64,000 nucleotides of DNA from Frankiales bacterium (GTDB lineage: Bacteria; Actinomycetota; Actinomycetes; JAFAQI01): NCBI GenBank assembly GCA_025980325.1, contig JAICXQ010000001.1, forward strand, positions 12,232-76,231, in the 5' to 3' direction. This document shows, one piece after another, positions 7,101 to 27,118 of this stretch (its first letter is position 1; each line of letters opens with the position of its first letter). The position numbers and the translations under genes are program-made. The notes under the pieces were generated by a model, which searched no databases, was not told the origin of the DNA, and was given only the letters and a program-made list of their open reading frames with translations.

Positions 7101-7876
7101 AGCCCATTCCCGTCGCAACACTTCGCGACGACATCGCGGGGTGGTCAAGACTGCCGCCGGAGGAAATCACGGCCGCGATTCGACTACTCACTGTCGACAG
7201 CGACCTCGCTCGTGGCGATCGCACCGGTGCGTGGGAGGTCGAACGGCGCGACGCGAGGCTCAATGCACGGCCCCTCATTGCTGTCACCGGCGGGCTGCTC
7301 GTCCTGCCGCACCTGTGCACGACCGCTCGCGACATCTTCCTCGGCCGACTTGCTGACGGCCGACTTCCCTGGCCCGTCCGTGACGAACGTCTGCGGCTCG
7401 CGGTCGACGCGTTTCGCCGCCATGTCACCGCGCAGCTCGAGCGCACGGTCGGCGAGAAACTCTCTGAGCTCGGCTTGCCGCATGTGATGAACGTCAAGGA
7501 GAACCGAGCCGCTGCTCTTGGGATCCCCAATCTGCCCGGCGAGATCGACGCACTCGCCGTCGAGGCCGCCTCGGAAACGCTTTGGGTGATCGAGGTCAAG
7601 CATGCCCGTCGTGCCGTGAGCGCGAGCGAGATCCGCGAACGGGTGAGGAAATTCATCGAGCCAAACGGTTACATAGACGTACTGCTCCGCAAGACAGCTG
7701 TCATCGCTCCGCATGCCTCAGCGGCTGCCGCACTGGCCGGCGCCATCGAAGAGCGACCTTGGCGGGTCGTTCCGCTCATGGTCACCGCAGCCGTCGAGCC
7801 CGCTGCGTTCGCGTCGTCGCGGCGCGTGCAATTCGCGACACCGAGAACATTGGCGGTCGCGCTGCAAGCGACCTGA
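4118..7876 (+). CDS. Large Ala-rich hypothetical protein (about 1250 aa) with a C-terminal PD-(D/E)xK nuclease-like motif
   Basis: The long ORF (3971-7876) overlaps the previous gene. The likely start is GTG 4118 (aagga RBS) or ATG 4157. No Walker A/P-loop was found. The C-terminus carries GEIDALAVEAASETLWVIEVKH (D..E.K, restriction-endonuclease-like core). Same strand, 62 nt after the NurA-like gene. Confidence 0.55.
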   Translation: MDRTAPSAPLPPQMGDVASKLSVVRPILACMLTGNQPRPRWTRLDAALAPFDALSVEVLARAALDSPSASHWAAATGLVWARALARSPRGIVVASAEDLPKLVGAGVAAWPEARNMSDWWPSDPRLVVSARVRNGRVRLHPGRVVEPLRLVRRLERIAFATDDAVYARHGFRTSDLVEVGLRLADLQVTGLAPAWSQTALPEPPLLRIPRASPFDVAEQVRAIPPSVTSEEITAAARLRERDLVADASALCTDPTAAGAACEWATTAVRQAHQPGCLAVTTDAGLVPVPASLVLEALGIATGRLAIEAAGEPWVRERWAYASTADLWEVLGLPFVDDETPIPVGGMLRIAERHLASIDVVAELAPASVQPAAENAVHRAASRATTEVADATGVAADMSADMLRLVLIDAAGRLERLSGGAVVAVTADEFTRVLSEAADGPNGQDEAWDFLLDLQRVPRTVELHPPDLVDAWRHWREHGWLVPPELDVDAVPDAAVMFAWLAHDPSWPAAAQWDATERILDAARLPPKVAFWARDLDDRGVVTLWAPPAMTGGRPTCYALHPDGLVIGATGDLPGAGIPDGAGALPIVVATALRDALFARPAAVAALNLDPLTPKRVLVGVDLDEGDGIAVATADGLPPLILLGPMLLAATAADPMAMHHTLGAALSTALRLGCGDVDMDAFSAAWNAGPVALVAGVRAGPVDRSPRRELPRTRAARMRAHQAHAAAVRAAGGDVPPGELTGDEAAEICQRLLIPAADRALRDAIARFDRDLLLRAAATWADEAHAHRAQLRDRLDLALAAPWRDEVLADPSDYEDDPDQTRPLHVLIETAIAANPAPESAGIAPDRIDLARLAEQARLVAWVGAASDGYRRGLNTLTVTVGPGALTGVSMPASDPSIEATVDMAAYVAASNVDALAAAADEARLQDPDEVERLLAEADGTERPFERFTDLPDLPGSLRSLDQTMRVTLGAGFGAISAVLRTCIDMAPPPIGVLSEPIPVATLRDDIAGWSRLPPEEITAAIRLLTVDSDLARGDRTGAWEVERRDARLNARPLIAVTGGLLVLPHLCTTARDIFLGRLADGRLPWPVRDERLRLAVDAFRRHVTAQLERTVGEKLSELGLPHVMNVKENRAAALGIPNLPGEIDALAVEAASETLWVIEVKHARRAVSASEIRERVRKFIEPNGYIDVLLRKTAVIAPHASAAAALAGAIEERPWRVVPLMVTAAVEPAAFASSRRVQFATPRTLAVALQAT

Positions 7877-9422: not shown

Positions 9423-10631
9423 TCAGGGAGTGCGGGCCGGGGCGAGCCCCTGCCCGCAGGACGCGCGGCCCGCGACGTGTAAGTCAATGGAAAGTGTCCC
9501 GGTCTGCCATGCGATCGCGCCGGGCGAGCCGTTTCTACTGTGCGACCGCCCCGGCATAAGGTTGTCGAGGACAGCCGCAGTTTCCTGCAGGTGCTCCGGA
9601 AACAGGTGGCCGTAGGTGTCCATCGTCTCGACGATGGACTTGTGGCCGAGCCGGGCCTGGATGACCTTTGGGTGGAGCCCGGCGGCGATTAGGGACGACG
9701 CGTAGGTGTGCCGCAGCGCGTGCATGCCGTACTCCTGCGGGAGGCCGGCGCGGCGTAGTGCGGGTTTCCAGACAGAGTCGTTGAACGACCCGCGGCGCCA
9801 GACTTCGCCGCGCGGGTTGGTGAACAGCAGGCCGTCCTCGCCAGTGCCGTACCGCTCGATGTGTGCGGCGAGGGCGTCGACGACGAACTTCGGCAACGGC
9901 AGCAATCGGCGCGACGACGGGGTCTTGAGCCGGTCGCTGATGACAGGAACCCCGCCGCCCATCGGTGTCTTGGCCTGCGCCTCGACCCACAGCTCGCGGC
10001 GCAGGAAGTTGACCGCTCGCAGCCGCACTCCGAGCAGCTCGCCCTGGCGCATGCCGGTGCCGACGCCGAGCGCAAGGATCGCGTAGTGGTCCGGCCGGGC
10101 CTCGAGCAGCAAGGACCCGACCTGCTCCGGCGTGAGGATCGACAGCTTCGACGGCGGGATTGCAGGCAGGTTGATCTTGAAGCACGGCGTCGTCGTGAGC
10201 AGCCGGTCATACACCGCCGAGCGCAGCATCATCGCGAGCAGCGCGTAGATGTGCCGGACCGTGCGCGGCGCGAGTCCCTTGCCGACGAGCGTGCCGACGA
10301 ACGCGTTGATGTCCGTGCGCCGCAGCGACGACATCGCGCGGCCGCCGAGGTGGGGGAGGACCTGGCACTTCAAGTAGGTGTTGTAGCCGGCGAGGGTGGA
10401 CGGCTCGACCCGCAGCGACGCGAGCCACGCCGGTGCGTACTCGGCGATGGTTATCCGCGCGTCGCCGCGGAACACGTACGTGCCGTCGATCGCGGCGACC
10501 TGCGCGCGGGCGAGCGCCTGCTCGGCGAGCTTCAGAGTGGAGAACCGCTTGCGGACCATCCGGCCCTCGACGCGGTAGGTGATCTCGTAGGAGAAGCCGC
10601 GCCCGTGGGTGATCTTGCGGGGTCGAGCCAT
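9423..10631 (-). CDS. int: Tyrosine recombinase/phage-type integrase (402 aa)
   Basis: N-terminal SAM-like domain with the catalytic domain carrying the R..HxxR..Y residues (HALRHTYAS, LGHKS, MDTYGHLF). Lies in the lower-GC islet. Confidence 0.9.
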   Translation of the reverse strand: MARPRKITHGRGFSYEITYRVEGRMVRKRFSTLKLAEQALARAQVAAIDGTYVFRGDARITIAEYAPAWLASLRVEPSTLAGYNTYLKCQVLPHLGGRAMSSLRRTDINAFVGTLVGKGLAPRTVRHIYALLAMMLRSAVYDRLLTTTPCFKINLPAIPPSKLSILTPEQVGSLLLEARPDHYAILALGVGTGMRQGELLGVRLRAVNFLRRELWVEAQAKTPMGGGVPVISDRLKTPSSRRLLPLPKFVVDALAAHIERYGTGEDGLLFTNPRGEVWRRGSFNDSVWKPALRRAGLPQEYGMHALRHTYASSLIAAGLHPKVIQARLGHKSIVETMDTYGHLFPEHLQETAAVLDNLMPGRSHSRNGSPGAIAWQTGTLSIDLHVAGRASCGQGLAPARTP

Positions 10632-11241: not shown

Positions 11242-14200
11242 ATGGTCTTCAGGGGGGATGTTCTCGTGATCCGGTCGAGGAAACCGCATTCACGTACAGT
11301 CGCGAATCGCGCCGTCGCACAGGCGATCGGCAAGACTCTTTTGGCCTTCACCGTCGGCGTGTCGGCGACGGTCGTGTCGGCACCGCTCGCCGCCGCGTCC
11401 ATCCCGACCACGGTCCCGCAACTGCAGCCGGTCGACGGCGAATCGCTGGCGGACACGAATAGCGGCGCGGATGCTATCGCTGCATCCGCCACGTCGTCCG
11501 GGTTGACCGAACGGCCGGACACGTGGATGCAGACGAGTCGCACCTTCACCGCCGCAAATGGAATTAACACGACGGTGATCGGTCTCACTCCGCTCAACTA
11601 CCAGGACGCGGGCGCCACGTGGCAGCCGATCGACGACGAGCTCACTGCGGACACGACGACGGGCTATGCGTGGCGTAACACCGCCGACGCCTACAGCGTC
11701 GAGTTCCCGGCGAACCTTCTGTCCGGGCCGATAAGGGTCAGCAACAACGGCGGTTGGGTCGCGTTCCAGATCGCCGGTGCGACCGGCGCAGGTGTGGTGA
11801 GCGGCAACACAATCACGTATGCGAACGCGCTGCCGGGTGTGTCACTGACTTACGCGGCGACTCCGCTCGGGTTGAAGGAGACGATGACGCTGGCGGACGC
11901 GTCGGCCTTGTCCGCGTTTACCGTCGTCGTGACCAGCAGCGACGGGCTGACGACCGCGACCCAGGTCGACGGGAGCACCGGCTTCGTCAACGCGACCGGC
12001 GATCTGATCGCGTCACTCGCGAAGCCGTGGATCACCGACGCGAACCAGGACATGAGCGGCCTCGACGACGCACTCTCGTCGTCGTTGACGCCGGACGGGA
12101 CGAACGCGTGGCTGGACGCGCTCACGGTGTCCGCGACCTGGTTGACCGCACCGAGCCGCTCGTGGCCGGTCACCATCGACCCCACGCTGAAGACCGAGCA
12201 GGACTTCTCGACCGACTGCCTGATGTTCTCCGGTCACCCGACGAGTGGTGTGTGCGCTCAGAATCCGGCCGGCGTGGGTTACCACGCCGACGATTCGCTC
12301 ATCCGCCGCGACGTCATGGAGTTCTCGGTGTCGTCGATCCCGTCCTCCGCCACGGTCACGGACTCGGAGCTCGAGCTCGACGAGGGGCTCACCGCCTATG
12401 GCCCGGTCGAGCTCCAGATCTACCGGAACGATCAGAGCTTCAGTGCGGTGAACGCCACCTGGGACGACGCCGATGCGCATACGGGAACGGCCTGGATCTC
12501 GACCGGGCGTGGCGGCGACCCGGTCGGCAGCGCTTTGATATCGACTCCGTTCGGGTGCGACCCCACCGGCCCGAGTTGCGCCGGCGTGAAGACGTTCAAC
12601 ATCGCCGGCGCGACCCAGAACTGGGTGAACGGGACGTGGGCGAATACCGGCATCCTCTTGCGCGAACAGGTCGAGACCAATGACGGCGTCGTGCAGTTCA
12701 ACGGCAGCAATTCCCCGACCGGCCCGCCGAACATCGTGGTGACGTGGGATCGCAACCCTGACCAGCCGACCCTCGTATCGCCCGCCTCGGGTGCGACCGG
12801 CCTGTCGCCGAGCCCATCGCTGCAGGCGAACGTCACCGACCCGGATGGCGGCGACCTGTACGCGAGGTTCTTCGTCCGCACGCACGGATCGAGCACCTGG
12901 GACATTGCGAACGGCGTCATCATGCCGGCACCGAACGCCGACGACTCGAACGGCGTGGCCTCCGGCGCGACCGTGACGTACTCGCCGTCCCTCTCGCCCG
13001 GCGTGACCTACGACTGGACCGCACAGACGTGGGACGGGACGCTGTTCTCGACGACACCGACGGCGCAGTCGTTCACGGTCGCGCCGCTGCCGCCGCAGCC
13101 GACCGTGTCGAGCTCGACTCATCCGAGCCCCGGCACCTGGTACACCGCTCGTAACGCGACGTTGAACTGGAGCGCGGGCAGCGGGATGACGGGATACTCC
13201 TACGTTCTCGATCAGCCCGGGTCCGGATCGACCACGTGTCCGAGCACGACACCGGATACGACATCGGAAGGCACCGCGACCACTGTTTCGTACGCGAACC
13301 TCGCCGACGGCATCTACTGCTTCCATGTGCGCGCCCAGAACATCTCCGGTTGGGGGCCGGCGTCCAACACCTTCGAGATCGACATCGACGGCACGACACC
13401 GGGCGCGCCGAGCGCAGTGACCTCGACCCCGGCACCGAACAGCAACGGATGGATCACCTCCGGCAACTTCACAATGAACTGGTCCGTGCCGACGCAGACG
13501 CAGGTCTCGGGGATCGCCGGCTACTCGTACGTCCTCGACCAGCCGGCGATCGGCAACACCTGCCCGCCGACGATTCCCGACACGACATCGGAAGGCGCCG
13601 CCGCGTCCGTGAGCTACACGGGCAAGGCAGACGGTGCGTGGTGCTTCCACGTCCGCGCCGAGAGCGGCGCCGGGCTGTGGGGCCCGGCGGCGCACTACAC
13701 GGTCAGCATCGACGCAACGCCGCTCACGGCACCGCAAAACCTCACCTCGAACCCGGCGCCGAACGCGACCGGATGGCTGACGATGAACAGCCCCACCATG
13801 ACCTGGTCGGCTCCGGCCAGCACCTCGGGGGTCACCGGTTACTCGTACGGCCCGCTCGATCATCCCGCGTCCGGTTCGACCACCTGTCCGACCACGGCTC
13901 CCGATACGACATCGGAGGGCACGGCCACCAGCGTTTCGTACAGCAATCTCGCCGACGGCATCTCGTGCTTCCACGTCCGCGCAGAGAACGCGGCAGGTGT
14001 CTGGGGTGACACCGCGCACTACACGTTGCGCATCGACAGCGTCGCCCCGACATCGCCGGCGAACCTGACGACGACTCCGTCCGCGGACGGGCTGTCCCAC
14101 GCGACCCGCACCATCGCCGCATCGTGGAGCGCGGGAACCGATGCCACGTCCGGCGTGGCCGGTTACTACTACACGTTCGACAACGTCGCGACCCGTCCCG

Positions 14201-17200
14201 CCAACACGCCGTTGTCTGCGGACACGTTCACGGCGACGACGACGGCGACGCTGTCGAACTCGACGGACGGTGTGTGGTACGTCCATGTGCGCACGATCGA
14301 CGCGGCCGGCAACCTCAGCGGTTACGCCAACTACGGCCCGGTGATTCTCAACAACGTCAGTCCGATCATCAACAAGACGCTCAACACAGCGGCGGCGAAC
14401 GGCTACTACGGGCGCGGCCAGTACCTCCAATACACGGTGACGGTGACCAACCCGTCGACCCTTGCGCCGTCGACGATCACTGGCTTCAGCGACACTCTCC
14501 AGCCGGGTCAGCTCCTGATCGGCACGGACATCCTGCTCAGCCGCTCCGACGACGGAAGTACCGCGGCGCGCCACTGCCTGCGGATCACCGGATCCGAGCA
14601 GTGCACGATCAGCACCGATGGGACGACGATCACGCTGCCGAACTTCACCCTTCCGGCCGGCGTCTCGCTGCAGCTCGTCTACACCACGCTCGCGACCGGG
14701 GTGGAGAACGGCTGCATGATCACGTCGAACACCGCGACCGCAGCCGATGCCGCGGGCAGCGCGACCACGAACCCGGTTTCCGCCACCATCTGTGACACCG
14801 GTCTCGGAATCGAGCCCTGGTGGAGCTATGTCTCGACCGCGGTCGGGCCTCAGTCGACCGCGCAGGTCAACGTCGCCAACGGCAACCTCGTCGTGCAGGC
14901 GACCGACTCCACCCCGATCAACGCGCACGGTCGCCTCGGTTACGTGATCCGCCGTACGTACAACAGCCAGGACACGACCGCGCTCACGCTGCCCGGAAGC
15001 CTCGGCGCGGGCTGGCAACTCAACGTCGGCGCGACCGACGATCTCGCCGGCGCCGGCGTGACGCCGACGAGCCTGTCGGTCCCGACCGCCAACAGCGTCG
15101 CGGCACCGCTGGGGATCACACTTATCGACCGTGACGGCACCAGGCACGTCTTCACCTACCGCAGCGCGAGCGTCGCGATCACGTCGCCGGTCGACGTGAC
15201 CTCACTCGCCGGCGGATCGCCGATCCATCAACTCGTGCCGGTGAACCCGCTGCTGCGTCCGTCGAGCCTGAGCGGGTCGGCAGCCTTCGCCCACGTGTGC
15301 GTCGACGCGACCTACCAAGCACCTGCGGGCGTACACCTCGCATTGTGGCGTTACGTCGGCACCAACGGCAGCACCTGCTCCGCTGCGCTCAATGATTCGA
15401 ACGCGCGGATCCTCGGCTTCACGACGATGCGCCCGGACCGGCTGCGCTCCGAGTTCGACGCCGCCGGTCACCTGCTCGACCTCGTCGACGGTTCCGGCGT
15501 CGACCTCCGCTACGCGTACGGCACGACCGGCGAGCTCAGGTCGATCAGCGAAGCACGTGACTGCACCGGCGCGGTCGGCACCGCGACGTGTCGTGGCGTC
15601 GTCGTCACGTACTCGAGCGACCAGACGAACGCGTGCCCCATTCCGGCCGGCGCGGCGAGCAGCGAGTGCGTCATCGATCCGGCCGGCCGTCGCACGATTT
15701 ACGCGTTCGACAACGCCGTTCCGAAGCATCTGGTCGAGGTCGACAACCCGGACGACAACCCGTCCGGCACCCGGGACCGCTTCCAGTACGCCTATCAGGG
15801 TTTCGGGGCGAGCTGTGGCGCCGCCGCGGCCGGTCAGCTGTGCACCGTCGTCGAACCGCGCTTTGACCCGAAGACCGGTGCTGTGATCAGCACGACGTTC
15901 GGATACACCGCGCAGAGCCCGCTCGGCCTGCCACGCGTCACGTCCATCACCGACCGCCGCCATGTGATGACGACGCTGGCCTACACCGGCGCGCCGTCGA
16001 CCGCTACGACCGTGGACGACAACGGTGAACGGACGAGTTACCTGTCGATCGACTCCAGCGGCCGGGTCGGCGAGGTCGACCAGGGGGCCACCACCGCGAG
16101 CCCGCTGAGCATCACCCGCTACACCTGGGACACCGCAGCCAATCCCTGCACGTACGTCTCCGGCACGGTGCAAGGCACACACACGGCGTGGGCCAGGCCG
16201 GACAACAACCTGTGCCGGGTGACGAGAGCGCACATCAGCGGGGCGTCGGACGAAACCACGTCGTTCGCCTATACCCCGGAAGGGATGCTGCTCACGTCCC
16301 GGCAGGTCATGTCGTCCGGGCCGGACCTCTACCGCACCTACGCTTACGCGACGCAGTATGTCCGCAACGGAAGCGCCACGATCACCGCGACGGACTCGGT
16401 GTCCGGCAGCGGCGACGTCGCCGTCGGCAACCGGTCGAGCGCCATCGGCGACGGTGGCTCGGTGGCCGGCGACTCCTCGGTCGTCTATGCACTGACCGAC
16501 CTCGTCGCAAGCTTGTCACCGCGCGGCAACGTTGCCGGTGCGACGGTTGCCAACTTCCGCACGGATTACACGGTCGCGGACAGCACTGCTGCCGAACCCG
16601 ACGTGAACCCCGGCGGCAACGCCTGCACGGCACGCAACAGCGGCTCGGTCTGCACCGTGTCCGCGCCGTACTCCGGATCCTCCAAGAGCATCACGCAGTA
16701 CGACTACGACAGCTTCGGGCAGAAGGTCAGCGCGACAGTTCCCAAGCTCTCCTACGAAACCCCGCCGAGCGGGCAGACCTACCAGTACACCTACACCTAC
16801 TACGCCGACAGCTCGACCGACCACGAGACGCACAAGACCAGCATGGGCGGATGGCTGGAAGCCGTCACCGACCCGGCCGGCCACTACGTGTTCTTCACCT
16901 ATGACGCGGCCGGCGATCGCACCCGCACGTGGGACCGCAACGCAACCACGGCGAGCGGCGATTCGCTTTCGGCGATGGAGGCGGCGGTCGCGACCGGTTC
17001 CGGGCCGGTCGGCGCTTCGGTGACCTTGTACGCAAACCCGTTCAACTCGATGCCGTGGCGCTACCTGCTCCTCACCGAGGAACCCGTCGGCCCGCTCACG
17101 ACCTATGCGGTCGATGTCGACGGCAACGTGACGGCAATTACGACGAACGCGGGCCACACGACGACACAGACGTTCGACGAAGCGGGCAACCTGCTCACTC

Positions 17201-20200
17201 GTACGACGCCGGCGGAGCCGGGACACCCGACGACGAACACCTACGATGCGTTCGGGAACCTCGCCACGACCACGAGCCCGAACAACGTCGTCACTGCGTA
17301 CCGCTACGACGCACTCAACCGTCGGGTGACGACGTACACCGACCGGGGTAGCGCAAGCAGCGGCACGTCCAACCCGGGCGGCGGCTGCTTCGTGACCGAC
17401 ACCGGTGCGAACGCGGTCCCCGAGTACGCGGTGAACGAGGTCGTCTGCGCCGCTCGTGCGAGCTACGACGAGTTCGGCAACATGGTCTCGAGCACCGACG
17501 GCGCGAACCACACCACGACGTACACGTACGACACCGCGAACCGTCGGGTCGACACGTTGACGCCGCGGACCGACACAGTCAGCTACACCACGCGCACGCT
17601 CTACGACGCCGACGGCGACGCGATCGACACGTGCCCGCCACGCCAGTTCACCGACGGCGGGGCGTCGACGTGCTCCGACACCAGCCCCGGCGTCTACAGC
17701 ACCCATCGAAGCTTCAGTGAAGCGGACCGGTTGCTGACGACGACGACATATCGCGCGCGGCCGACCTCCGTGCACGGCGACCCGGCGAACACGCCGGCAA
17801 CGAGCACCGACACCACGACGTACACGTACGACGCCGACGGCAACCGGACCAGCGTCGCCGACCCCAACAATCATGTGACGACGGACGTGTACGACTTCCT
17901 CGACCGCAAGACCAGCGAGCTGACGCCGCGGACGAGTGGAGTCAACAAGCGCACGGTGTACACGTACGACGCGAACGGCAACGTGCTCAGCACGACCGCG
18001 TCGGGCCTCGCGCCGGTGAACGTCGGGGGCACCCCGCTCAATGTCGGCAGCCCGTACTCCGCGTCGAACCCCTATCCGCTGCCGGCCGACGTGACGACCT
18101 ACAGCTCGATCACACTGACCGGCGGCGCCTGGATCACCGTGCCGGCGAACAGCGCGCCGGCCGCGATCAGCATCACCGTCTCGTCGACCCTGTCGATCTG
18201 CAGCACCTGCGGCATCACTCTCGACGGTGACGGCTGGGCCGGCGGCACCCCGGCGGCAAGCGCCCTGACAACGGACGGATTCACGGTGAGCGGGAGTGGC
18301 AGCGGGCCCGGCGCCGGCGCGGGCGGTACCAGCGCGGCGACGGCCGGCGGTGGCGGCGGAGGCGCCGGCTACTCGGCGGCGGGGACCGACGGCTTCGGTG
18401 GCGGCAGCCCCCTCGGCGGCGCGGGTGGCAACGCCGGCTCGCCGTACGGCGACGCGACCATCGGCGGTGAGACGTCCACTCAAGCCGGCTCGGGCGGCGG
18501 CGCGGGCGGCACGATCGAGCCGTCGACGCTCGGAGGCGTGGGTGGTGCCGGCGGCGGCATCCTGCACGTGACGGCGAACCAGATCATCCTCGACGGTTCG
18601 ATAACGGCACGCGGCGCGAACGGTGCGGACGGCCAGGTCGTCCAAGGCGCGCTCGGTGCGGGTGGCGGCGGTGGCGGCTCGGGTGGCGCGATCTGGCTGA
18701 GCGCCCCGCAGATCATCACCGACTCCGGCTCGATCGGTCACGTCGACGTCAGCGGCGGTGCCGGTGGCAGCGGCACTCCGGGTGGCACTGACGGCTCGGG
18801 CGGCGCGGGTGCGCCGGGTCGGGTCCGGTTCGACACCGACGAGCTCAGCAGCAGCATCGTGACGACCGCCGGGTCGACGCAACGGACGACGTTCGGGCGG
18901 ACCACCGCGTACAGCTACGACTTCGACAACCGGCTCGTCGACACTGTGATCGGCGCGTCGTCGCCGAACGCGGCGGCCGACGGTCCGACCGGCAGCGACG
19001 GCGGGTCCAACGTGCGCACCCGACTCGTCTACGACGACGAGGGGAACGTCGTGGGCCGCTTCGACCCGCGTGCCTTTGCGGCGTCGGTGACGAGCCCGGA
19101 CGTGCGGTACGAGTCGGTTGCGGTCTACGACGCCGACCATCGGCTGACCGACGTCTACCAGCCGTACAGCGACTCGAGTGGCGCGTCCGATCCGAACGGT
19201 GCCCCGTCGCAGTGTCCGGACGCGGCCAGTCTCGGGATCAGCGCCTATCAAGGCCTGACCGGTGTGCACGTCTGTCGTCTGCACTACGGGTACGACCACG
19301 ACGGCAACCGCACACTGACGCAGCTGCCGACGTACGACAGCAGCGACACGACCCGGGTGTACACGGCTGCTTACACTCCGGACGACCTGCTCGCGTCGAC
19401 GAGTGTGCCGGACCCGTCGGTGACGAGTCATGCGGCTGCACTCCGTGCGGAGGCATACACCTATGACGGTGCCGGCCGCCGCCTGACCGACCAGGAGTTG
19501 CCGGACACCGGTGGCCCGACGACCACGACGACGTACACCGCTGACGGCTTGGTCGCCACGGTGACGCCGCCGACGGGCGGCGCGAGCCATCTGACGACGT
19601 ACGGGTACGACCCGAACGGCGCGCAGGTGAGTGTGACGATGCAACAGGACGCGTCGACCACCCGGACGAGCTTCACCGACTACAACAGCGACGGCAGCGT
19701 CTATGCGAACGTCGACCCGGCCGGAAATACGACGAGCTACACCTATGACGCGGCGGGCAACCAGATCGCGGTCTATGGCCCGTCGGCGAATGCCGGCGAT
19801 GCGACCAACCCGAACCACCTGCCGACGGTGTATTCGTACTTCGACGACAACTTGCTCGCGACGACCTCGACGCCGACGGTGTCCAGTGGTGCGACTCGCC
19901 GCCTGACGACGTACGGCTACAACCTGGGCGGCGACAAGACCAGCGTCGACGTCGACTACACCAACGCGAGCGGGACAGTGACGACCGACGGTGCTCCGCA
20001 GCGTTTCGGGTACTACCCGGACGGGCGGATTGAGTCGTCAACCGGCCGCAGCGGCGGGTCGCAGGCGTTCAGCTACGACGCGGCCGGGCACCCGTTGTCG
20101 AGCAGCGACACGGCGAACGGCGACACGGTCACGACCGCCGCGACGTATTACCTGGACAACGCCATCCGCACGGTGAGCGAGTCGGGGACTGTGGTTCCGA

Positions 20201-22401
20201 CGTCGTCGACGACGTACAGCTACGACGCGGCCGGCTCGGTCGATCTGCGGCAAAGCCAGGTGGGGACATCGACGACCTCGACGTCGTTTGCGTACACGGA
20301 CAACGAGCAATTGGCGAATGTGGCCGGCGGTGTGACCGGCACGACGATCACGCTTGTGTATGACTCGCAGGGTCGGCCAACGACGACGAACTACGCGTCG
20401 GGTGTGGCGTTGACGCGGACATGGAACGCCGACGACACACTCGCGAGCCAATCGTTGGCGACCAACGGCAATTCGAGCAACTGGGCGTACGCGTATGACG
20501 GGATGTCCCGCGTGACGGCGGCGGACAACACCTCCGGCGCGACGAGCACGGATTGCACCGCTGCGACTCTGCCGAACGGTTTGCAGTGCTTCACCTACGA
20601 CGCGGCCGGCCGGTTGCATTCGTTTGCCGACAGCCAGGCGAGCCGGACGGCGACTTACGACGCGGACGGAAACCGGTTGAGCTATGGCGACGCGGCGCAC
20701 CCGTCGGTCGCGCCGGTGGTGACGGCGAACTACAACCCGGACGACTCGATTCACGACCAGAAGGTCGGGTCGGGGACGGACAACGTGTATGTGTACGCGC
20801 TGCCGTTCGGTGGGGTGACATCGGACGGGTGCAGCACGTATGCGTACGACGGGTTCGGCCGGCTCTCGTCGGTGACCGGTTCCGGCGGGAGCGGCTGTAC
20901 GTCGAACGTGTCGTACACCTATGACGCCCTGGATCGGCAGGTGCAACGCAACGAGACCGGCTCGAACGCGGTCCGTGGTGGCGTGACGAACCTGGCGTAT
21001 GACGGATTGGCCATGACGTTGACGAGCGAGTCGCTGCCGTCGAGTGGCGGGCTGACGCGTTACACGTTGGACGGCGCGGGTGCGGCGTGGGCGGTGACGA
21101 ACAGCTCGACGAACGGGCAGACGCAGTACCTCGCCGACGACGGGCAGGGCAACGTGACTAACCCAGTCACGGCCAGCAGCGGCAACCTCGCGTGCGGGTT
21201 CCGCTACGACCCGTGGGGCAGCGCGCTGACGACGAGCCTCAGCGTCACACCCACGTGCACGTCGGGCAACACGCCGACCGACCTGCAGTACCGCGGCGAG
21301 GCAAAGGATCCGACGACCGGCACTTACCAGCTTGGGTCCCGCACCTACGACCCGGCGAAGACCGGCTTCCTCAATCCAGACAGTTACCGCAATGCGCCGT
21401 CGTCGGGCGACCTCAGCATCGGCACCGATCCGCTCACCCGCGACAGCTACAACTACGTCAACGGCGACCCGATCAACCTGATCGATCCGAGCGGCCACAT
21501 GAACGAAGCGGAGGGTGGCGGCGGCTGCGGGAATCTGCGGATGCGGACGTGTCGCTTGGTGGAGCAGTACAACTACTACCTGGTTGAGAAGGAGCTGATC
21601 CGCCAGCACGATGCGTACTACGCGGCGGTCGGGGAGCGTAAGCAGTGCGTTGAGCATCGCTGCGGCGGGGTCAACGACCCGAGTGCCGCGGCTGCGTACT
21701 CGAAGTCGATGCTGGAGATCCTCAACGGTGCTGCTTATCAGGGCGATATCAACAGTCCGTGGGTCAAGACCCTCGATCCGCTAGTCCAGTCGTTCTGGCA
21801 GCAAGCCAAACCCAGCTTCGAAGGCGTCGTTACCGAGGACGACACGGTTCAAGGGATCATCGACACCATCGCCACGCTCGGCATCGCCGCACCCGAAGAA
21901 GCCGCCGTCAGCGCCGGCGAGACCGCAGCTAAAGAGGTCACTGAGCAAGCGGTGAAGGCCGCCGCGCGAGTAACCGTCGATGACGCCGCCCCACAAGCAG
22001 CGCGAGACGCCGTAAGCATGGAAGAGGACCTGGTTGCCTCCGGTCGTAGCTTCGGGCCCGGCGCTGCCCACGTTGATGACCCGGCGTTCTCCCCGGCCTT
22101 CTACCGAGGAGCGCCGCCCGGCGAGAATCCAAGCTTCACTCTGAAGCCGGGCGAGTATCGAGTCACTGGGGCCAGCCAAGTTCGAGGGTTGTCTGTCTTC
22201 AACAACCCCGAAGCCGTCGCGTCAAGGGGTATGGTCCCGTTTGAGGTCGACCAGTCGACCGTCTCTGATGCTCTGAGCATCGAGCAGCGCGGCGGCAACC
22301 TGGAGCACTTCGAGATCGTGCCGGCCGGGGGCGCATTTCCGCCGCAGAACGAGTTCCAATCACTACTCGATGAGATCGAAGTGTTCGGTGGAGGTGAATG
22401 A
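11242..22401 (+). CDS. rhs: Giant Rhs/YD-repeat polymorphic toxin (3719 aa) with signal peptide, four Ig/Fn3-like repeats, YD repeats, a Gly-rich insert and a C-terminal toxin domain
   Basis: N-terminal signal peptide (alternative GTG start at 11266 with a GGGGGG RBS). Many YxYDxxGN(R/L) repeats (YTYDANGNV, YTYDADGNR, YSYDFDNRL and others). Core end motif DPLTRDSYNYVNGDPINLIDPSGH at about aa 3395, followed by about 310 aa of C-terminal domain. Confidence 0.9.
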   Translation: MVFRGDVLVIRSRKPHSRTVANRAVAQAIGKTLLAFTVGVSATVVSAPLAAASIPTTVPQLQPVDGESLADTNSGADAIAASATSSGLTERPDTWMQTSRTFTAANGINTTVIGLTPLNYQDAGATWQPIDDELTADTTTGYAWRNTADAYSVEFPANLLSGPIRVSNNGGWVAFQIAGATGAGVVSGNTITYANALPGVSLTYAATPLGLKETMTLADASALSAFTVVVTSSDGLTTATQVDGSTGFVNATGDLIASLAKPWITDANQDMSGLDDALSSSLTPDGTNAWLDALTVSATWLTAPSRSWPVTIDPTLKTEQDFSTDCLMFSGHPTSGVCAQNPAGVGYHADDSLIRRDVMEFSVSSIPSSATVTDSELELDEGLTAYGPVELQIYRNDQSFSAVNATWDDADAHTGTAWISTGRGGDPVGSALISTPFGCDPTGPSCAGVKTFNIAGATQNWVNGTWANTGILLREQVETNDGVVQFNGSNSPTGPPNIVVTWDRNPDQPTLVSPASGATGLSPSPSLQANVTDPDGGDLYARFFVRTHGSSTWDIANGVIMPAPNADDSNGVASGATVTYSPSLSPGVTYDWTAQTWDGTLFSTTPTAQSFTVAPLPPQPTVSSSTHPSPGTWYTARNATLNWSAGSGMTGYSYVLDQPGSGSTTCPSTTPDTTSEGTATTVSYANLADGIYCFHVRAQNISGWGPASNTFEIDIDGTTPGAPSAVTSTPAPNSNGWITSGNFTMNWSVPTQTQVSGIAGYSYVLDQPAIGNTCPPTIPDTTSEGAAASVSYTGKADGAWCFHVRAESGAGLWGPAAHYTVSIDATPLTAPQNLTSNPAPNATGWLTMNSPTMTWSAPASTSGVTGYSYGPLDHPASGSTTCPTTAPDTTSEGTATSVSYSNLADGISCFHVRAENAAGVWGDTAHYTLRIDSVAPTSPANLTTTPSADGLSHATRTIAASWSAGTDATSGVAGYYYTFDNVATRPANTPLSADTFTATTTATLSNSTDGVWYVHVRTIDAAGNLSGYANYGPVILNNVSPIINKTLNTAAANGYYGRGQYLQYTVTVTNPSTLAPSTITGFSDTLQPGQLLIGTDILLSRSDDGSTAARHCLRITGSEQCTISTDGTTITLPNFTLPAGVSLQLVYTTLATGVENGCMITSNTATAADAAGSATTNPVSATICDTGLGIEPWWSYVSTAVGPQSTAQVNVANGNLVVQATDSTPINAHGRLGYVIRRTYNSQDTTALTLPGSLGAGWQLNVGATDDLAGAGVTPTSLSVPTANSVAAPLGITLIDRDGTRHVFTYRSASVAITSPVDVTSLAGGSPIHQLVPVNPLLRPSSLSGSAAFAHVCVDATYQAPAGVHLALWRYVGTNGSTCSAALNDSNARILGFTTMRPDRLRSEFDAAGHLLDLVDGSGVDLRYAYGTTGELRSISEARDCTGAVGTATCRGVVVTYSSDQTNACPIPAGAASSECVIDPAGRRTIYAFDNAVPKHLVEVDNPDDNPSGTRDRFQYAYQGFGASCGAAAAGQLCTVVEPRFDPKTGAVISTTFGYTAQSPLGLPRVTSITDRRHVMTTLAYTGAPSTATTVDDNGERTSYLSIDSSGRVGEVDQGATTASPLSITRYTWDTAANPCTYVSGTVQGTHTAWARPDNNLCRVTRAHISGASDETTSFAYTPEGMLLTSRQVMSSGPDLYRTYAYATQYVRNGSATITATDSVSGSGDVAVGNRSSAIGDGGSVAGDSSVVYALTDLVASLSPRGNVAGATVANFRTDYTVADSTAAEPDVNPGGNACTARNSGSVCTVSAPYSGSSKSITQYDYDSFGQKVSATVPKLSYETPPSGQTYQYTYTYYADSSTDHETHKTSMGGWLEAVTDPAGHYVFFTYDAAGDRTRTWDRNATTASGDSLSAMEAAVATGSGPVGASVTLYANPFNSMPWRYLLLTEEPVGPLTTYAVDVDGNVTAITTNAGHTTTQTFDEAGNLLTRTTPAEPGHPTTNTYDAFGNLATTTSPNNVVTAYRYDALNRRVTTYTDRGSASSGTSNPGGGCFVTDTGANAVPEYAVNEVVCAARASYDEFGNMVSSTDGANHTTTYTYDTANRRVDTLTPRTDTVSYTTRTLYDADGDAIDTCPPRQFTDGGASTCSDTSPGVYSTHRSFSEADRLLTTTTYRARPTSVHGDPANTPATSTDTTTYTYDADGNRTSVADPNNHVTTDVYDFLDRKTSELTPRTSGVNKRTVYTYDANGNVLSTTASGLAPVNVGGTPLNVGSPYSASNPYPLPADVTTYSSITLTGGAWITVPANSAPAAISITVSSTLSICSTCGITLDGDGWAGGTPAASALTTDGFTVSGSGSGPGAGAGGTSAATAGGGGGGAGYSAAGTDGFGGGSPLGGAGGNAGSPYGDATIGGETSTQAGSGGGAGGTIEPSTLGGVGGAGGGILHVTANQIILDGSITARGANGADGQVVQGALGAGGGGGGSGGAIWLSAPQIITDSGSIGHVDVSGGAGGSGTPGGTDGSGGAGAPGRVRFDTDELSSSIVTTAGSTQRTTFGRTTAYSYDFDNRLVDTVIGASSPNAAADGPTGSDGGSNVRTRLVYDDEGNVVGRFDPRAFAASVTSPDVRYESVAVYDADHRLTDVYQPYSDSSGASDPNGAPSQCPDAASLGISAYQGLTGVHVCRLHYGYDHDGNRTLTQLPTYDSSDTTRVYTAAYTPDDLLASTSVPDPSVTSHAAALRAEAYTYDGAGRRLTDQELPDTGGPTTTTTYTADGLVATVTPPTGGASHLTTYGYDPNGAQVSVTMQQDASTTRTSFTDYNSDGSVYANVDPAGNTTSYTYDAAGNQIAVYGPSANAGDATNPNHLPTVYSYFDDNLLATTSTPTVSSGATRRLTTYGYNLGGDKTSVDVDYTNASGTVTTDGAPQRFGYYPDGRIESSTGRSGGSQAFSYDAAGHPLSSSDTANGDTVTTAATYYLDNAIRTVSESGTVVPTSSTTYSYDAAGSVDLRQSQVGTSTTSTSFAYTDNEQLANVAGGVTGTTITLVYDSQGRPTTTNYASGVALTRTWNADDTLASQSLATNGNSSNWAYAYDGMSRVTAADNTSGATSTDCTAATLPNGLQCFTYDAAGRLHSFADSQASRTATYDADGNRLSYGDAAHPSVAPVVTANYNPDDSIHDQKVGSGTDNVYVYALPFGGVTSDGCSTYAYDGFGRLSSVTGSGGSGCTSNVSYTYDALDRQVQRNETGSNAVRGGVTNLAYDGLAMTLTSESLPSSGGLTRYTLDGAGAAWAVTNSSTNGQTQYLADDGQGNVTNPVTASSGNLACGFRYDPWGSALTTSLSVTPTCTSGNTPTDLQYRGEAKDPTTGTYQLGSRTYDPAKTGFLNPDSYRNAPSSGDLSIGTDPLTRDSYNYVNGDPINLIDPSGHMNEAEGGGGCGNLRMRTCRLVEQYNYYLVEKELIRQHDAYYAAVGERKQCVEHRCGGVNDPSAAAAYSKSMLEILNGAAYQGDINSPWVKTLDPLVQSFWQQAKPSFEGVVTEDDTVQGIIDTIATLGIAAPEEAAVSAGETAAKEVTEQAVKAAARVTVDDAAPQAARDAVSMEEDLVASGRSFGPGAAHVDDPAFSPAFYRGAPPGENPSFTLKPGEYRVTGASQVRGLSVFNNPEAVASRGMVPFEVDQSTVSDALSIEQRGGNLEHFEIVPAGGAFPPQNEFQSLLDEIEVFGGGE
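13090..14360 (+). repeat. Four in-frame tandem repeats of about 285 nt (95 aa) encoding Ig/Fn3-like modules within the Rhs N-terminal region
   Basis: Repeating consensus G(Y)SYVLDQPxSGSTTCPxTxPDTTSEGTAxSVSYxNLADGxxCFHVRAxNxAGxWGxxAHYTxxID, seen four times. Confidence 0.6.
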
Positions 22402-22727
22402 TGGTCGGCGAGACGGTCTATGTGACTGCTAAAGCTGTCCGATGGGTCAGCGATGACCCCGTCCCGGGCATCGTTGAGGTCCAGGTCGTAGATGGGCACG
22501 GCAAGGCTTGGTCCTTTATAGACAAGGCACCGATGTTCGAGGAGGGCAACAAACTCACTCGTACGACCGCGTATCCCACGGAGATCGAGTTGGCGTGCAC
22601 CGTCGTCGGATCCAACAGCGACGGGATCGTTGTCTCGACCGCAAGGCCCTGGGGGATCGAAACAATCGATGGGGTGTCTCAGTTTACGTTGGCCCCCGCG
22701 CAAGTTCATGGTCGAGCCGCTATGTGA
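22398..22727 (+). CDS. Putative cognate immunity protein for the Rhs C-terminal toxin (109 aa)
   Basis: Its start overlaps the rhs stop (ATGATGG at 22398-22403). It is small and has no detectable motifs. The position is typical for Rhs immunity genes. Confidence 0.5.
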   Translation: MMVGETVYVTAKAVRWVSDDPVPGIVEVQVVDGHGKAWSFIDKAPMFEEGNKLTRTTAYPTEIELACTVVGSNSDGIVVSTARPWGIETIDGVSQFTLAPAQVHGRAAM

Positions 22728-23619
22728 ATCCCTGACGCGGTGATCGATCGCCAGGCGTCTTGCCGCGTACTCACGGCGTCCCGCCTCGGGTTCCGCGGAC
22801 GGCCGGTGACGACGAACTACCGGACCGGCGTCACACTGGACCCTGATGTGGAAACAGGGAGGTCCATTTCATCGAAGGCTTGAAGGGAACACTTGCACTT
22901 CGAAATGACTGAGCCGAATTCTTAGCAGCGCGGGACCAAGTTCTGCGCGGTGCGCCGATCTTCAAGGGCGGCAACGTTAACAGCCTGCCGCCCGAGCAGT
23001 CGCAATTCGTTACATTCGAGAGTCCGGACGGACGCGGAAGCGCCAATTGAGGCGATAATGCGGGGGCCTGGTTCAGTTGCACGGCTGGTGCGCACCCGAG
23101 GCCCGGCTACGACGGGAGTGACGTTCGCTTCCGTGTAGCCATGGCACGAGGTCGCGACATGACACTGCGTACACGCTTGCGGTATTCCGGGTGCCTACGC
23201 GAGCGGGATGGCGTCCTACGATCGGACCGGAACCGGTCGCGCCAGCTCGCTCTTGTGATCGACGCTCACCGGTTCGAGCAATTTTGGCGTACGCCTACGA
23301 CGGCGTGTTCAGCGCAACGGTGGCGGAGAACACCTCGGGTCGCGACGAGTGCGGATTACCCGTCCGGCGGGCCCGCCGGACGGGTTGGAATGCTTCAGCT
23401 AGGACGCGGTGGGACGAGTGCACACGTTTACCAGCGGTGGGCGCCCTGGACGGTGTCGTATGACGCGGAGCGGAACTGGTTGCTCTCGACCAAGTGAGCT
23501 AACTTACGCACCAACCGGCAACGAGCACGGCGCCCATCCGCCTCAACTCGGGCGAGTCTTAGGCCCACTCGGGTGCAGAGGAAGCGGCGTTGCAGTCAGG
23601 AGTCGTACGTCCAATACCT

Positions 23620-24107
23620 TGATGCCTTCGACCAACTGCGAGCGGTGGGAAGAATTAGTGCCTCCTAACCATGAAGCCCCCCGCATCGAAATGATCGATG
23701 GTCTTGACGCGACCCGACGTCTCGAAGAGTGGTATTTCGGTATAGGCGGGTTCTCGCCCGAACGCGCTGTGGAGTTCATCCGTGAGGAGGCGGCGCTGTG
23801 CGGTGTAGGTGAGATTCGCGTCACACGTCGAGGAGCATGGTGGGTGATCGATTCGGAGGAAGATTGGCTTCCACGAGCCAATGACGGACTAGATGCGTTC
23901 CACGCTCTACTCCGTTACCCGGAAGGCGGCGTCAACGGTGCGCGAACCGAAGCGCTGCTAACCGCGTTTGCGACGGTACTTATCACCGCCAAGCGTGACA
24001 GGTCATGGGTCATCGTCGAATCTCGGGATCGTGCATGCCGCTGGATTCGTCGTCACGGTGACGAAATGTCGATGCATGCGCGAACCATCGCATTCGCCAC
24101 GATCTAG
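23620..24107 (+). CDS. Hypothetical small protein in a low-GC spacer; possible orphan immunity protein
   Basis: Protein-like segment MIDGLDATRRLEEWYFGIGGFSPERAVEFIREEAALCG... within ORF 23409-24107. The start is uncertain (ATG about 23620, GTG about 23659 with a ggaag RBS, or ATG about 23691). Confidence 0.3.
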
Positions 24108-24450
24108 CGCTAGCTGTCCTGACCAAGGACGTTGCTGGCCGTGGTCATGCGGCGGGCCGGGTGATCTCGAGGCGGGCCGAGCACCTCGAAGGACGGTCCG
24201 CATTGACCTTGTGGACGCTCTCGAATCCAACCCCAACACTAACGGCCCGAAATGAATGAGCGTAGTTAGCAGAGGCCCCGGCGATGACGGTTCTAGGACT
24301 GGCTCAACGACCTCACGATACGCGACCTGATTGTTGCGCGCGAACCGCGATTTGGCCCCTTAGGAGCGTTCTGATCTTCGTCGTTCGGATGCCGAGTTTA
24401 TGTACTCTGATCCAAGGAGCCACCGACCAGGCTTGCCCTGAACGTGATGA

Positions 24451-24549
24451 GTGAGTCGCTGCAACATCGGTACCGACCCACTGACCCGCGACACCTATAA
24501 CTACGTCAACGGCGACTCGATTAACCTCACCGATCGCAGCGGGCACGCG
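24451..24549 (+). pseudogene. Orphan Rhs core-end fragment (displaced C-terminal tip)
   Basis: Encodes IGTDPLTRDTYNYVNGDSINLTDRSGH, about 81% nt identity to 21418-21500 of the main rhs. The frame degenerates immediately after SGH, and the downstream protein-like frame is shifted by +1. Confidence 0.6.
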
Positions 24550-24550
24550 G

Positions 24551-25321
24551 GTCGACGTGCATCTCAGACGGATGTTGACAGCATGTGCGCCGGCTACTCG
24601 GGCGCTGGCCCAAAGGCACACCTTGAAGCGCGTCGCGGCCATCGTCGACGAAATCACAGACGTTCTCGTATACGGGCCACAAGTCGAGCGGCTCCTGAAA
24701 GGAAAGTCACGTCGTCCTGCTGATAAGGCGAAACTAAGTGCCATCGGTTACTGCATGTGTCTTCCCGCAGATTTTTGGACCCCTAATTGGTCGTGGCAGA
24801 TGCGGCTGGCGTACCTCGACGACCCGAACCAACTCACCGACGAGAACATCCTCTTCGCGGCCGGCGAGCGAGACGCGGTGGACCCGCATGCCGTCGCGCA
24901 CGTGCTCGAAACCGGGTTCTTGGCTCTTGCGGCCGTCGCGGCGGACGATCCAGAAGAAGGCGCGACGACGGTCGACCCATTCACTGACGACGCCAAGCTA
25001 GTCGACGCCGATCTTGCTGCCGCCGAACGCCACCTGGCGATGATTCCTGACGCGCTCCAGTACGGTCCGAACAAGGCGATGCTTGTCAGCATCCGGTCTA
25101 CAAATGCGGCCGACGATGCCTTGTCGGCTGCGCAGCGCACCTTCCTCGATCACGAGTTGCTTGAGGCCGCATTGGTGCGTGGCGGACTATCACAAGAGGA
25201 GGCGCACCAAGCTGTCGTAACCGTCTTTCCGCACGGCTCGAACTATTCTCCCGATGTGATCCGTCAGTTCTCTACGTACTTCAGCGATACGTACTTCAAG
25301 TACTGGGGGATGACTAGATGA
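24551..25321 (+). CDS. Candidate orphan toxin domain (about 255 aa) downstream of the orphan Rhs tip
   Basis: Protein-like ORF (MHLRRMLTACAP...VAAIVDEITDVLVYGPQVERLL...). The frame is open back to 24485 without an ATG, consistent with a former fusion to the Rhs tip. Confidence 0.4.
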   Translation, partial: VDVHLRRMLTACAPATRALAQRHTLKRVAAIVDEITDVLVYGPQVERLLKGKSRRPADKAKLSAIGYCMCLPADFWTPNWSWQMRLAYLDDPNQLTDENILFAAGERDAVDPHAVAHVLETGFLALAAVAADDPEEGATTVDPFTDDAKLVDADLAAAERHLAMIPDALQYGPNKAMLVSIRSTNAADDALSAAQRTFLDHELLEAALVRGGLSQEEAHQAVVTVFPHGSNYSPDVIRQFSTYFSDTYFKYWGMTR

Positions 25322-25857
25322 CAGGCAAGCTGTCCATCGGAGCCTGGGCGGTCGGATGGTCTAACGAGATCGGGCCCTTTCGGGTCGAATCGAGCGCCGA
25401 GCCTCTAGAGTACGTCTGCGCGGCAAGCACTCATGTTGAGGCGGATTCTGCGTCTGTCGCGATCGAGCTTGTACATCGAATCTCGGGCATGCGGCCGCAC
25501 GCATTGCTTGCCGCAACGTACCAGCCGAGCCAAGACGGCCGCCTGGTCGTTCGGGTCGTTCGGGGAGTCGAATTCGATCCTGCAAAAGCGATAGTCACGA
25601 GCCCTCTCGGGCTGAAACTCGCAACCGCCTTGCCGCCGAATCTGGGCGAGGCAGCGGCTGCGGCGTTTCGGTCGGATGAATCCACCGACCTCAACGTGGG
25701 TGGCGTGGTGAATATCGTTGGCGGAGGCATCGATCACGACTCATCGCCGATGGTATTCATGCGATGTGGCGAGATTCTATGCCGTTTTCTCATGGCGGTC
25801 GCCGTGCGACAGAACCCGCGTGTCGCGATTCAATCCCTTGTAAAGTCTTGGGCGTAA
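25318..25857 (+). CDS. Putative immunity protein for the orphan toxin (179 aa)
   Basis: ATGA start/stop overlap with the preceding ORF at 25318-25321. Confidence 0.4.
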   Translation: MTGKLSIGAWAVGWSNEIGPFRVESSAEPLEYVCAASTHVEADSASVAIELVHRISGMRPHALLAATYQPSQDGRLVVRVVRGVEFDPAKAIVTSPLGLKLATALPPNLGEAAAAAFRSDESTDLNVGGVVNIVGGGIDHDSSPMVFMRCGEILCRFLMAVAVRQNPRVAIQSLVKSWA

Positions 25858-26751: not shown

Positions 26752-27118
26752 GATCAAAGTGGATGCCTGGGATTGGCGCCTGCAGGTCCAAACGACTACG
26801 GAGACAAGCCGCGTGACCAGGCCGACATCCCCCAGCTGTCATTTGGGGCCGGCATGACGGCGAGTGACATGAGTCTCTTTGGAGAACATTCGGCTTACCG
26901 GCGGACTCCGTCCGCGGCCTTGCTCGGATCCGCGCTCACGGAGCGTTTCCGGCGCGGCTGACCGGCCACTTTCGGGTCCCCTTCCCGATCGAACCCGGCC
27001 AGCGCTGGTCGTCGGGCGCCACGGAATCGGGCGGGAAACTTCGGTCCGGACGCTGAAGGCGCCGTCACGCAAACCCGCGAGGCTCGCCGCTGACGCCCTC
27101 AGCACGACAGGAGCAGGG

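Follow-up and report, generated by a model that had tools for sequence, protein, structure and literature searches.

Among the Rhs polymorphic toxins that leave Gram-positive cells through the Sec pathway, the closest described counterpart of the gene analysed here is WapA-CT1 of Streptococcus suis, beside the wider group of Bacillus subtilis WapA-type toxins. WapA-CT1, of 3,158 amino acids (aa), is built from a Sec signal, an unknown N-terminal domain, a DNRLRE domain, LysM, DUF6531, the two segments Rhs1 and Rhs2, the core and a PreT-CT region; experimentally it is Sec-exported, wall-associated, used in competition and autocleaved at E735/PINLNTGNF, D1819 and H2716 (PMC12704120; slashes in motifs mark the site of cleavage). 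Sec-exported Rhs toxins of this kind are known, yet they are much less studied than the Rhs effectors that belong to type VI secretion systems (T6SS), and it is an open question how a protein exceeding 300 kDa traverses a thick wall and how its tip is delivered. Here we describe an rhs/wapA-like gene that lies in a 64-kb stretch of DNA from a Frankiales bacterium (contig JAICXQ010000001.1), referred to below as the window. Its 3719-aa product is of a type already known, the WapA type: an Rhs/YD polymorphic toxin that bears a Sec-type leader. With good confidence we assign the locus as a whole to the WapA-type Rhs polymorphic toxin systems, its host being a monoderm, Frankiaceae-like actinobacterium.

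The gene (11242..22401; positions are those of the window, and features lie on the plus strand unless stated otherwise) runs through 3719 codons without interruption, in DNA of ~67% G+C. An in-frame GTG at 11266, 8 nt past a Shine-Dalgarno-like AGGGGGG (11251-11257), provides an alternative start; translation probably begins at this GTG, 8 codons past the first ATG, and the n-region of the leader is then more canonical. Pfam and NCBIfam profile scans of the whole protein matched RHS_repeat (PF05593; E 5.8e-37, nine stretches) and YD_repeat_2x (TIGR01643; E 6.5e-33). Given the matches to RHS, YD, DUF6531, core and DNRLRE profiles, together with the motifs DPSGH and DPLTR, the feature is real at these coordinates, far beyond chance. 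An initial annotation, made from the letters of the DNA, had proposed a giant Rhs/YD open reading frame (ORF) at 11242-22401 and a delivery route independent of the T6SS and of the type VII secretion system (T7SS). The unbroken frame and the RHS, YD and core matches bear out the former, with both the YD repeats and the Rhs core recovered by the domain mapping that had been suggested as a check. The latter agrees with the whole-protein scans, in which neither PAAR, prePAAR or a VgrG-binding N-terminus nor an LXG or WXG100 domain was found. At 90% identity the protein is a singleton; its NCBI contig measures 113 kb. Promoter and terminator scans gave no more matches than were obtained in shuffled sequence.

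The first 52 residues (11242..11397) look like a Sec-type signal peptide, as judged from hydropathy, an AAA/S site and homologues. A basic n-region is followed by TLLAFTVGVSATVVSAPLAAA and then by AAA/S, and the h-region at aa 32-50 is the sole strongly hydrophobic 19-mer of the whole protein, with the hydropathy maximum of 1.84 at aa 33. Because this 19-mer follows the basic n-region and precedes AAA/S, the N-terminus reads as a Sec-type leader, in agreement with the signal peptide claimed at the outset. It might instead be supposed that export relies on a dedicated system, ESX/T7SS or other, whose genes lie elsewhere, and that the hydrophobic segment is a membrane anchor, since the view is restricted to 64 kb of a genome, actinobacteria commonly carry ESX systems and the n-region, at ~30 aa from the annotated ATG, is unusually long. 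Yet the probable GTG start shortens that n-region, an AxA-type site lies behind the h-region, all homologues have classical signal peptides, and the LXG, WXG100 and PAAR domains are missing, so that we regard export by such a system as extremely improbable. Genes for a T6SS, a T7SS, a sortase or a SecF-like protein were not found among the tested ORFs of the 64-kb window.

Behind the Sec-type leader stands a conserved N-module (aa 53-505; 11398..12756) that ends in a DNRLRE domain (NF033679, aa 329-501; E 2.4e-16; 60 bits, where the cutoff is 34). DNRLRE domains are akin to the alginate-binding module CBM96 (PMC9971899). Using the N-terminal 1,180 aa as query, aa 88-505 were found to share 27-48% identity with 17 proteins in which the module comes right behind a signal peptide of their own; signal peptides are present in all the homologues at the equivalent place. 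These homologues are mostly Rhs proteins of 1,500-1,900 aa; one is titled "DNRLRE domain-containing protein [Solirubrobacterales]". The "about 400 aa beta-rich region" of the initial annotation is thus present, but it is this conserved module. Its "unusual modular N-terminus" is likewise largely the standard N-module of the class, given that Sec-exported WapA-type Rhs toxins have already been described (e.g. PMC12704120); what is added to the module is an expansion of immunoglobulin (Ig)-like repeats.

This expansion is preceded by a single fibronectin type III (Fn3)-like beta-sandwich (aa 506-617; 12757..13092), which has no significant family match and corresponds in position to an fn3 domain in two relatives, L001, a 3,277-aa Rhs protein from a Frankiaceae metagenome-assembled genome (MAG; JAVEEG010000035.1), and L006, from a metagenome. 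Four tandem Ig-like repeats of ~108 aa each then occupy aa 618-1040 (13093..14361). They match Y_Y_Y (E 3.9e-11) and Big_13 (E 3e-6), and as DNA they recur with a period of 324 nt and an identity of 74-83% (repeat families D2 and D6), reaching 83% between 13207-13341 and 13855-13989 and 74% between 13627-13713 and 13951-14037, which confirms the four Ig/Fn3-like repeats proposed earlier. In view of this likeness at the DNA level and of the single Fn3 module in L001 and L006, the four-repeat stalk looks like a recent, lineage-specific amplification. The following beta-sandwich segment (aa 1041-1170; 14362..14751) may tentatively be called DUF11/RrgB-like from sub-threshold profiles (DUF11, E 0.4; RrgB_K2N_iso_D2, E 0.043); the homologous segment of L006 reaches E 0.0026 with DUF11, below the cutoff. 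The DUF11-like segment named in the initial annotation therefore exists, its identity as DUF11 being doubtful.

With respect to the wall-binding region of WapA proteins, DNRLRE is present and the Ig/Fn3 repeats stand where LysM or CWB2 would be expected. This bears on whether the toxin acts by contact at all. A Sec-exported Rhs toxin might also be released to the medium as a diffusible, bacteriocin-like particle, as would suit the lack of a recognised wall-anchor domain or sortase signal in the scans; the CBM96-like carbohydrate-binding N-module could then target the surface of the prey instead of the wall of the producer. Against a diffusible particle, the characterised Gram-positive homologues are wall-associated and active in contact-type assays (PMC12704120), and a long Ig/Fn3 stalk is typical of surface-displayed proteins. 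We consider release to the medium unlikely and prefer a WapA-type toxin that would be displayed on the surface of its producer.

The shell region covers aa 1171-3419. A DUF6531 plug (aa 1208-1262; E 4.9e-7) opens the first YD half-shell, Rhs1, which extends to aa 2257 (14752..18012 for both), and the second half-shell, Rhs2 (aa 2546-3321; 18877..21204), is made of RHS/YD repeats with 37-52% identity to L001 and L006. Some 2,200 aa separate DUF6531 from the core end. As the single shell of shorter homologues aligns to both aa ~1400-2258 and aa ~2554-3425, the shell is double; the YD-repeat shell recognised earlier is thus found at twice the usual length, as in Streptococcus suis WapA. The second half-shell leads into the Rhs repeat-associated core, or aspartyl-protease plug (TIGR03696, aa 3322-3419; 21205..21498; E 6.7e-13). 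Its end reads NLIDPSGH/M, with DPSGH at aa 3415-3419 and DPLTR earlier, at 3395; the DPxGH core end of the initial annotation accordingly closes the Rhs_assc_core match. A double DPxxx motif is the aspartyl-protease signature of Rhs and TcC proteins (PMC8636562), and from this motif cleavage after H3419 is predicted. At ~aa 1207, AQ/VNVANGNL corresponds to the site of N-terminal cleavage in S. suis; whether it is cut is uncertain because the acidic-Pro pair is missing.

Some points speak against assigning the protein to the WapA type. The leader was called by hydropathy and motif. No wall-anchoring domain of the LysM, CWB2, SLH or LPXTG kind was recognised in the protein scans. The motif AQ/VNVANGNL is degenerate with respect to [DE]-P-V/I-x-x-x-x-G. 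Finally, the tested neighbouring ORFs included no partner comparable to the SrtB or the SecF-like protein of S. suis, the neighbours of rhs being an integrase, unknown ORFs and beta-lactamase-family genes in place of a srtB/secF pair.

At the junction of Rhs1 and Rhs2 the shell is interrupted by a Gly-rich, all-beta insertion domain of 288 aa (aa 2258-2545, ending in GAPGRVRFD; 18013..18876) with 28% Gly. The Gly-rich insert seen earlier in the YD shell is real and is a discrete domain: it is kept in the Frankiaceae relative L001 and cleanly missing from L006, where the hairpins …TVYTYD-x-x-GN… and …TA[YF]SYDxDNRLVDTV… border a single gap. Over its full length, including a terminal GxGR[IV]RxD, it aligns with free-standing secreted proteins of 370-500 aa (P0170-P0177). 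L006 was retrieved by a metagenome scan with an alignment of two sequences and, being without the insert, serves as a negative control; a single-sequence metagenome scan with the insert itself found nothing, and no Pfam or NCBIfam model matches it. The AlphaFold2 (AF2) model of the insert is all beta, with a predicted local distance difference test (pLDDT) of 69.5 and a predicted template modelling score (pTM) of 0.73. Compared with the PDB, it had no significant neighbour; among the weak matches right-handed beta-helix proteins predominate, which is no more than suggestive.

The 288-aa insert might be a functional module of the delivery machine, either a receptor- or envelope-binding element or a gate like the beta-propeller in the TcB shell, an idea that we put forward tentatively and regard as doubtful. 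If it were true, the insert would have been recruited from a free-standing secreted family, of which one member has an rhs gene on either side in a Nitrospirota genome, and it would define an undescribed subclass, namely double-shell Rhs toxins of Frankia-like actinobacteria with a grafted cocoon-wall domain that governs recognition or release. The remainder of the locus is an ordinary polymorphic-toxin cassette.

The member in question, P0172, is encoded in a Nitrospirota MAG (L009:1-7551; JBFLXP010000022.1), where it is flanked by an RHS-repeat gene and by a DUF6531/YD-shell gene whose product exceeds 1,834 aa. Among the five contexts of free-standing homologues examined, this was the only one with rhs neighbours, those of P0173, P0174, P0176 and P0177 being unrelated; the link is anecdotal and serves as a hint.

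Past DPxGH the protein continues with a pre-toxin linker (aa 3420-3619; 21499..22098) and a toxin domain of ~100 aa (aa 3620-3719; 22099..22398). The linker, for which no family matches were found, opens with a conserved MNEAEGGGGCG and further contains two Cys pairs, an Ala/Gly/Val stretch of mild hydrophobicity and a spacer rich in Ala and Glu; only its first ~55 aa are common to L001, the rest is variable, and conservation elsewhere is seen in the last ~100 aa of the protein. The "310-aa toxin" of the initial annotation is therefore there, but as a variable linker of ~200 aa and a conserved domain of ~100 aa. When 1.84 billion proteins were searched with a profile of the last 108 aa, 357 cluster representatives at 50% identity were retrieved, 156 of them at E <= 1e-10. 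Among the 150 of these that were listed, 94 carry a full-length copy of the domain, which in 90 of the 94 ends no more than 3 residues from the C-terminus. Long members of the family are Rhs proteins and others pretoxin-HINT (PT-HINT) proteins, including one encoded on a Streptomyces plasmid. Judged from these sequences, the distribution is as expected for a polymorphic-toxin tip; the family is unnamed. A further candidate, P0106, taken for a protein with eight tandem toxin domains, was rejected as a false positive, being a cadherin-like repeat protein with VNDAP motifs.

Invariant in the toxin family are G38, S40, Q71, G73 and H78, and nearly so R11, G12 and E80 (domain numbering); in protein numbering the conserved residues include R3622, S3651, Q3682, H3689 and E3691. 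Of these, R3622, S3651, H3689 and E3691 may act as catalytic residues of the R/S/E type. The AF2 model of the tip (pLDDT 85) has as its best PDB match by Foldseek the toxin Tse2 of Pseudomonas aeruginosa (5ako_C; probability 0.66). ADPRTs_Tse2 (PF18648) is the only Pfam family matched recurrently: of 35 members of the toxin family, 14 gave a match at E <= 1, the best at E 1.1e-5, and in ten members scanned singly the matches span up to profile positions 30-127 of 137. The structure of Tse2 resembles that of an ADP-ribosyltransferase (ART) (Robb et al. 2016, as cited in PMC6099711). A number of results point away from this kinship. The Foldseek match is sub-threshold (E 0.21; template modelling score, TM, 0.46); the ten single scans reached at best 25 bits and E 3.3e-5, all below the cutoff of 26.6 bits; the tip of the window protein itself had no match to PF18648 at E <= 1; and the family profile retrieved nothing from PDB sequences at E <= 10. 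The biochemical mechanism of Tse2 was itself still described as unknown in a 2025 review (PMC12133291). Because the Foldseek and PF18648 lines agree, neither being significant alone, we think it rather probable that the tip family is a sister of Tse2, probably with the fold of an ART; by Pfam's rule it is not a member of PF18648.

The start of a 109-aa ORF (22398..22727) overlaps the rhs stop (ATGA). This ORF is 52% identical (E 2e-41) to the gene (107 aa) that immediately follows the PT-HINT toxin P0003 and 45% identical to the gene downstream of P0002, both of which carry the same tip; homologues at 45-52% identity follow this tip on PT-HINT as well as on Rhs fragments. In the case of the more distant tip of P0017, the next gene (96 aa) is unrelated. 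Since the ORF accompanies the same toxin domain across different delivery scaffolds, it is likely, by homology, to be the cognate immunity gene.

This linkage also bears on the identity of the target. The toxin might be directed against eukaryotes, in the manner of a Tc (TcB-TcC-like) or other host-directed toxin, and not be an interbacterial weapon. A fused TcB-TcC cocoon is comparable in size to the double shell of ~2,200 aa. Additionally, Tse2 is toxic inside eukaryotic cells when expressed there (PMC12133291). An immunity gene that is translationally coupled to the toxin and co-inherited with its domain argues otherwise, as do the orphan tip and immunity debris downstream, and no TcA-like gene is present among the tested ORFs of the window; hence, an anti-eukaryotic role appears very improbable, and an interbacterial WapA-type toxin remains our reading.

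Comparison with the two relatives shows that tips are exchangeable on a conserved scaffold. L001 is 50-70% identical to the window protein from aa ~1040 to aa ~3475, a span that includes the DUF11-like segment, the two half-shells with the Gly-rich insert, the core and another ~55 aa past DPxGH; it has one Fn3 repeat, an N-module of ~30% identity, an Ntox43 tip (E 4e-26) and different downstream genes. L006 is 37-38% identical over both half-shells, is without the Gly-rich insert and bears a third, unrelated tip. Swapping of the C-terminal tip, which the initial annotation had proposed to look for in related loci, is thus borne out.

Remnants of further rhs modules lie downstream of the immunity candidate, in a region where G+C drops to 0.585-0.62 (22-27 kb). 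By tblastn, shell pseudogene fragments that match aa 3082-3128 and contain an in-frame stop were located at 23287..23429 (repeat family D3). An orphan Rhs core-end remnant (…NLTDRSGH) at 24463-24546 has 84% nucleotide identity to 21414-21498 (repeat family D5), and its cleavage motif has decayed to DRSGH. It is followed by a 254-aa ORF (24557-25321), out of frame with the remnant, and by a 179-aa ORF (25318-25857) with an ATGA overlap; these are a candidate orphan toxin and its candidate orphan immunity gene, a pair assigned by position only (24557-25857). The immunity candidate of 109 aa, the orphan ORFs and the neighbouring small ORFs had no Pfam or NCBIfam family match; in 22728-26800, small ORFs without a match are 23409-24107 (232 aa), 24557-25321, 25318-25857 and 26401-26751. 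With the 85-nt core-end repeat (21414-21498 / 24462-24546), replacement of the tip by recombination is possible, but repeat and orphan tip do not share a reading frame.

The sequence comparisons establish the domain architecture, the toxin family and its place at the C-terminus, the linkage of tip and immunity gene on different scaffolds, the swapping of tips and the nature of the insert as a domain of its own. By analogy with the characterised relatives, we infer export through Sec, autocleavage, encapsulation of the tip, a dependence on contact and ART chemistry, and the following sequence of events may be envisaged. The 3,719-aa precursor would leave the cell unfolded through the Sec translocon by means of its signal peptide and fold outside, Rhs1 and Rhs2 forming one large closed shell, with DUF6531 plugging one end, the Rhs core the other, and the C-terminal 300 residues inside. 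The aspartyl protease of the core would cut after DPSGH (H3419) and so free the pre-toxin linker and the toxin domain. The DNRLRE/CBM96-like domain and the Fn3/Ig array may space the shell from the producer, bind envelope glycans, or both, and the Gly-rich, beta-solenoid-like domain would protrude from a single hairpin at the Rhs1/Rhs2 junction. Upon contact with a neighbour, the tip would be released and enter the cytoplasm of the target, where the Tse2-like, ART-fold domain of ~100 aa would halt growth, probably using NAD+. The producer would be shielded by the 109-aa immunity protein, whose translation is presumably coupled to that of the toxin. Recombination at the core end would swap tips together with immunity genes and leave orphan debris downstream.

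A tyrosine recombinase/integrase is encoded 610 bp upstream of rhs, divergently and on the minus strand (9423..10631; Phage_integrase, E 2.3e-20, and Phage_int_SAM_3). The "competition island" of the initial annotation finds support in this gene, in the G+C dip at 22-27 kb and in the orphan modules downstream. Other results run counter to it: no tRNA gene was found in the window, no direct repeat longer than 14 nt flanks the locus between 7.8-11.2 kb and 22.4-30.2 kb, and an integrase at least 90% identical, in the Frankiaceae MAG L005, has no rhs among its called neighbours and lies beside a PhdYeFM/PIN toxin-antitoxin pair. An island at the rhs locus is plausible; its boundaries were not found. 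The 90%-identity cluster of the integrase has 37 members on many contigs, including Frankiaceae and Mycobacteriales MAGs; it is unusually conserved for its kind, which would fit a mobile element in wide circulation or a recombinase fixed in the chromosome.

Upstream of the integrase, four co-oriented ORFs occupy 141-7876: an SbcD-like C-terminal fragment (141-653), an SMC/SbcC-like ATPase of 812 aa (653-3091; PADLOC mad3, E 1.3e-27, and LmuB, E 2.2e-18), a 322-aa ORF (3088-4056) and a protein of ~1,240-1,300 aa without a family (3971-7876; a far-sub-threshold match to the anti-phage protein Upx of 19 bits against a cutoff of 1900). Together they may form an uncharacterised defence locus beside the integrase. 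Downstream of rhs, 26879-38400 contains two PF00144 beta-lactamase-family genes (26879-28489, plus strand; 30104-31507, minus strand), Peripla_BP_6, Amidohydro_3 and an M19 membrane dipeptidase; the region resembles a peptide or D-amino-acid utilisation locus and is probably core genome that flanks the toxin region. At 40001-44000 the AT skew of the plus strand is ~+0.20, equal to that within the rhs gene; of two minus-strand ORFs scanned in this stretch, 42315-44867 matches major facilitator superfamily (MFS) and ATP-binding cassette (ABC) transporter models and 40073-42430 has no match.

To the described Sec-exported Rhs toxins, the locus adds a double-shelled example from an actinobacterium, an insertion with clear-cut limits in the shell wall, and a compact toxin family of ~100 aa (357 clusters) that is accompanied by an immunity family and distantly related to Tse2. 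Given this distant relationship and the unknown mechanism of Tse2, the chemistry of the small domain could shed light on that toxin. The two resemble each other in that Tse2 (5ako, PF18648) is a small, growth-arresting cytoplasmic toxin with a small adjacent immunity protein; they differ in that Tse2 is a free-standing T6SS/Hcp substrate, while the domain described here is the tip of Rhs and PT-HINT proteins.

With T6SS Rhs effectors such as Photorhabdus Rhs1 (PMC8636562), the window protein shares the YD shell, the N-terminal plug, the aspartyl-protease plug with its double DPxxx, the encapsulated toxin and the immunity gene. Unlike these effectors, it has a signal peptide in place of PAAR and of a VgrG- or chaperone-binding N-terminus, and its shell is twice as long and carries an inserted domain. 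The correspondence with S. suis WapA-CT1 is closer in layout: both have a Sec signal, an N-domain with DNRLRE, DUF6531, two half-shells, a DPxGH core and a PreT linker with a polymorphic toxin, and in both loci an immunity gene follows downstream and truncated or orphan rhs-CT modules lie nearby. The cut between Rhs1 and Rhs2 in S. suis falls 1,084 aa past the first site; the insert of the window protein begins ~1,050 aa past VNVANGNL, near the same junction. Unlike the S. suis locus, which has both, the window locus is without adjacent srtB/secF-like genes, an adjacency that is a trait of the streptococcal locus and not general to WapA proteins. The Sec-exported WapA-type route is thus already known, and the present locus is a variant architecture of it in an actinobacterial host. 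Its points of difference are the Ig/Fn3 repeats, where S. suis WapA has LysM and B. subtilis WapA CWB2-type domains, the absence of a sortase or SecF-like partner nearby, the grafted Gly-rich domain of 288 aa, and a different toxin tip, from an unnamed Tse2-like family with an immunity family of its own.

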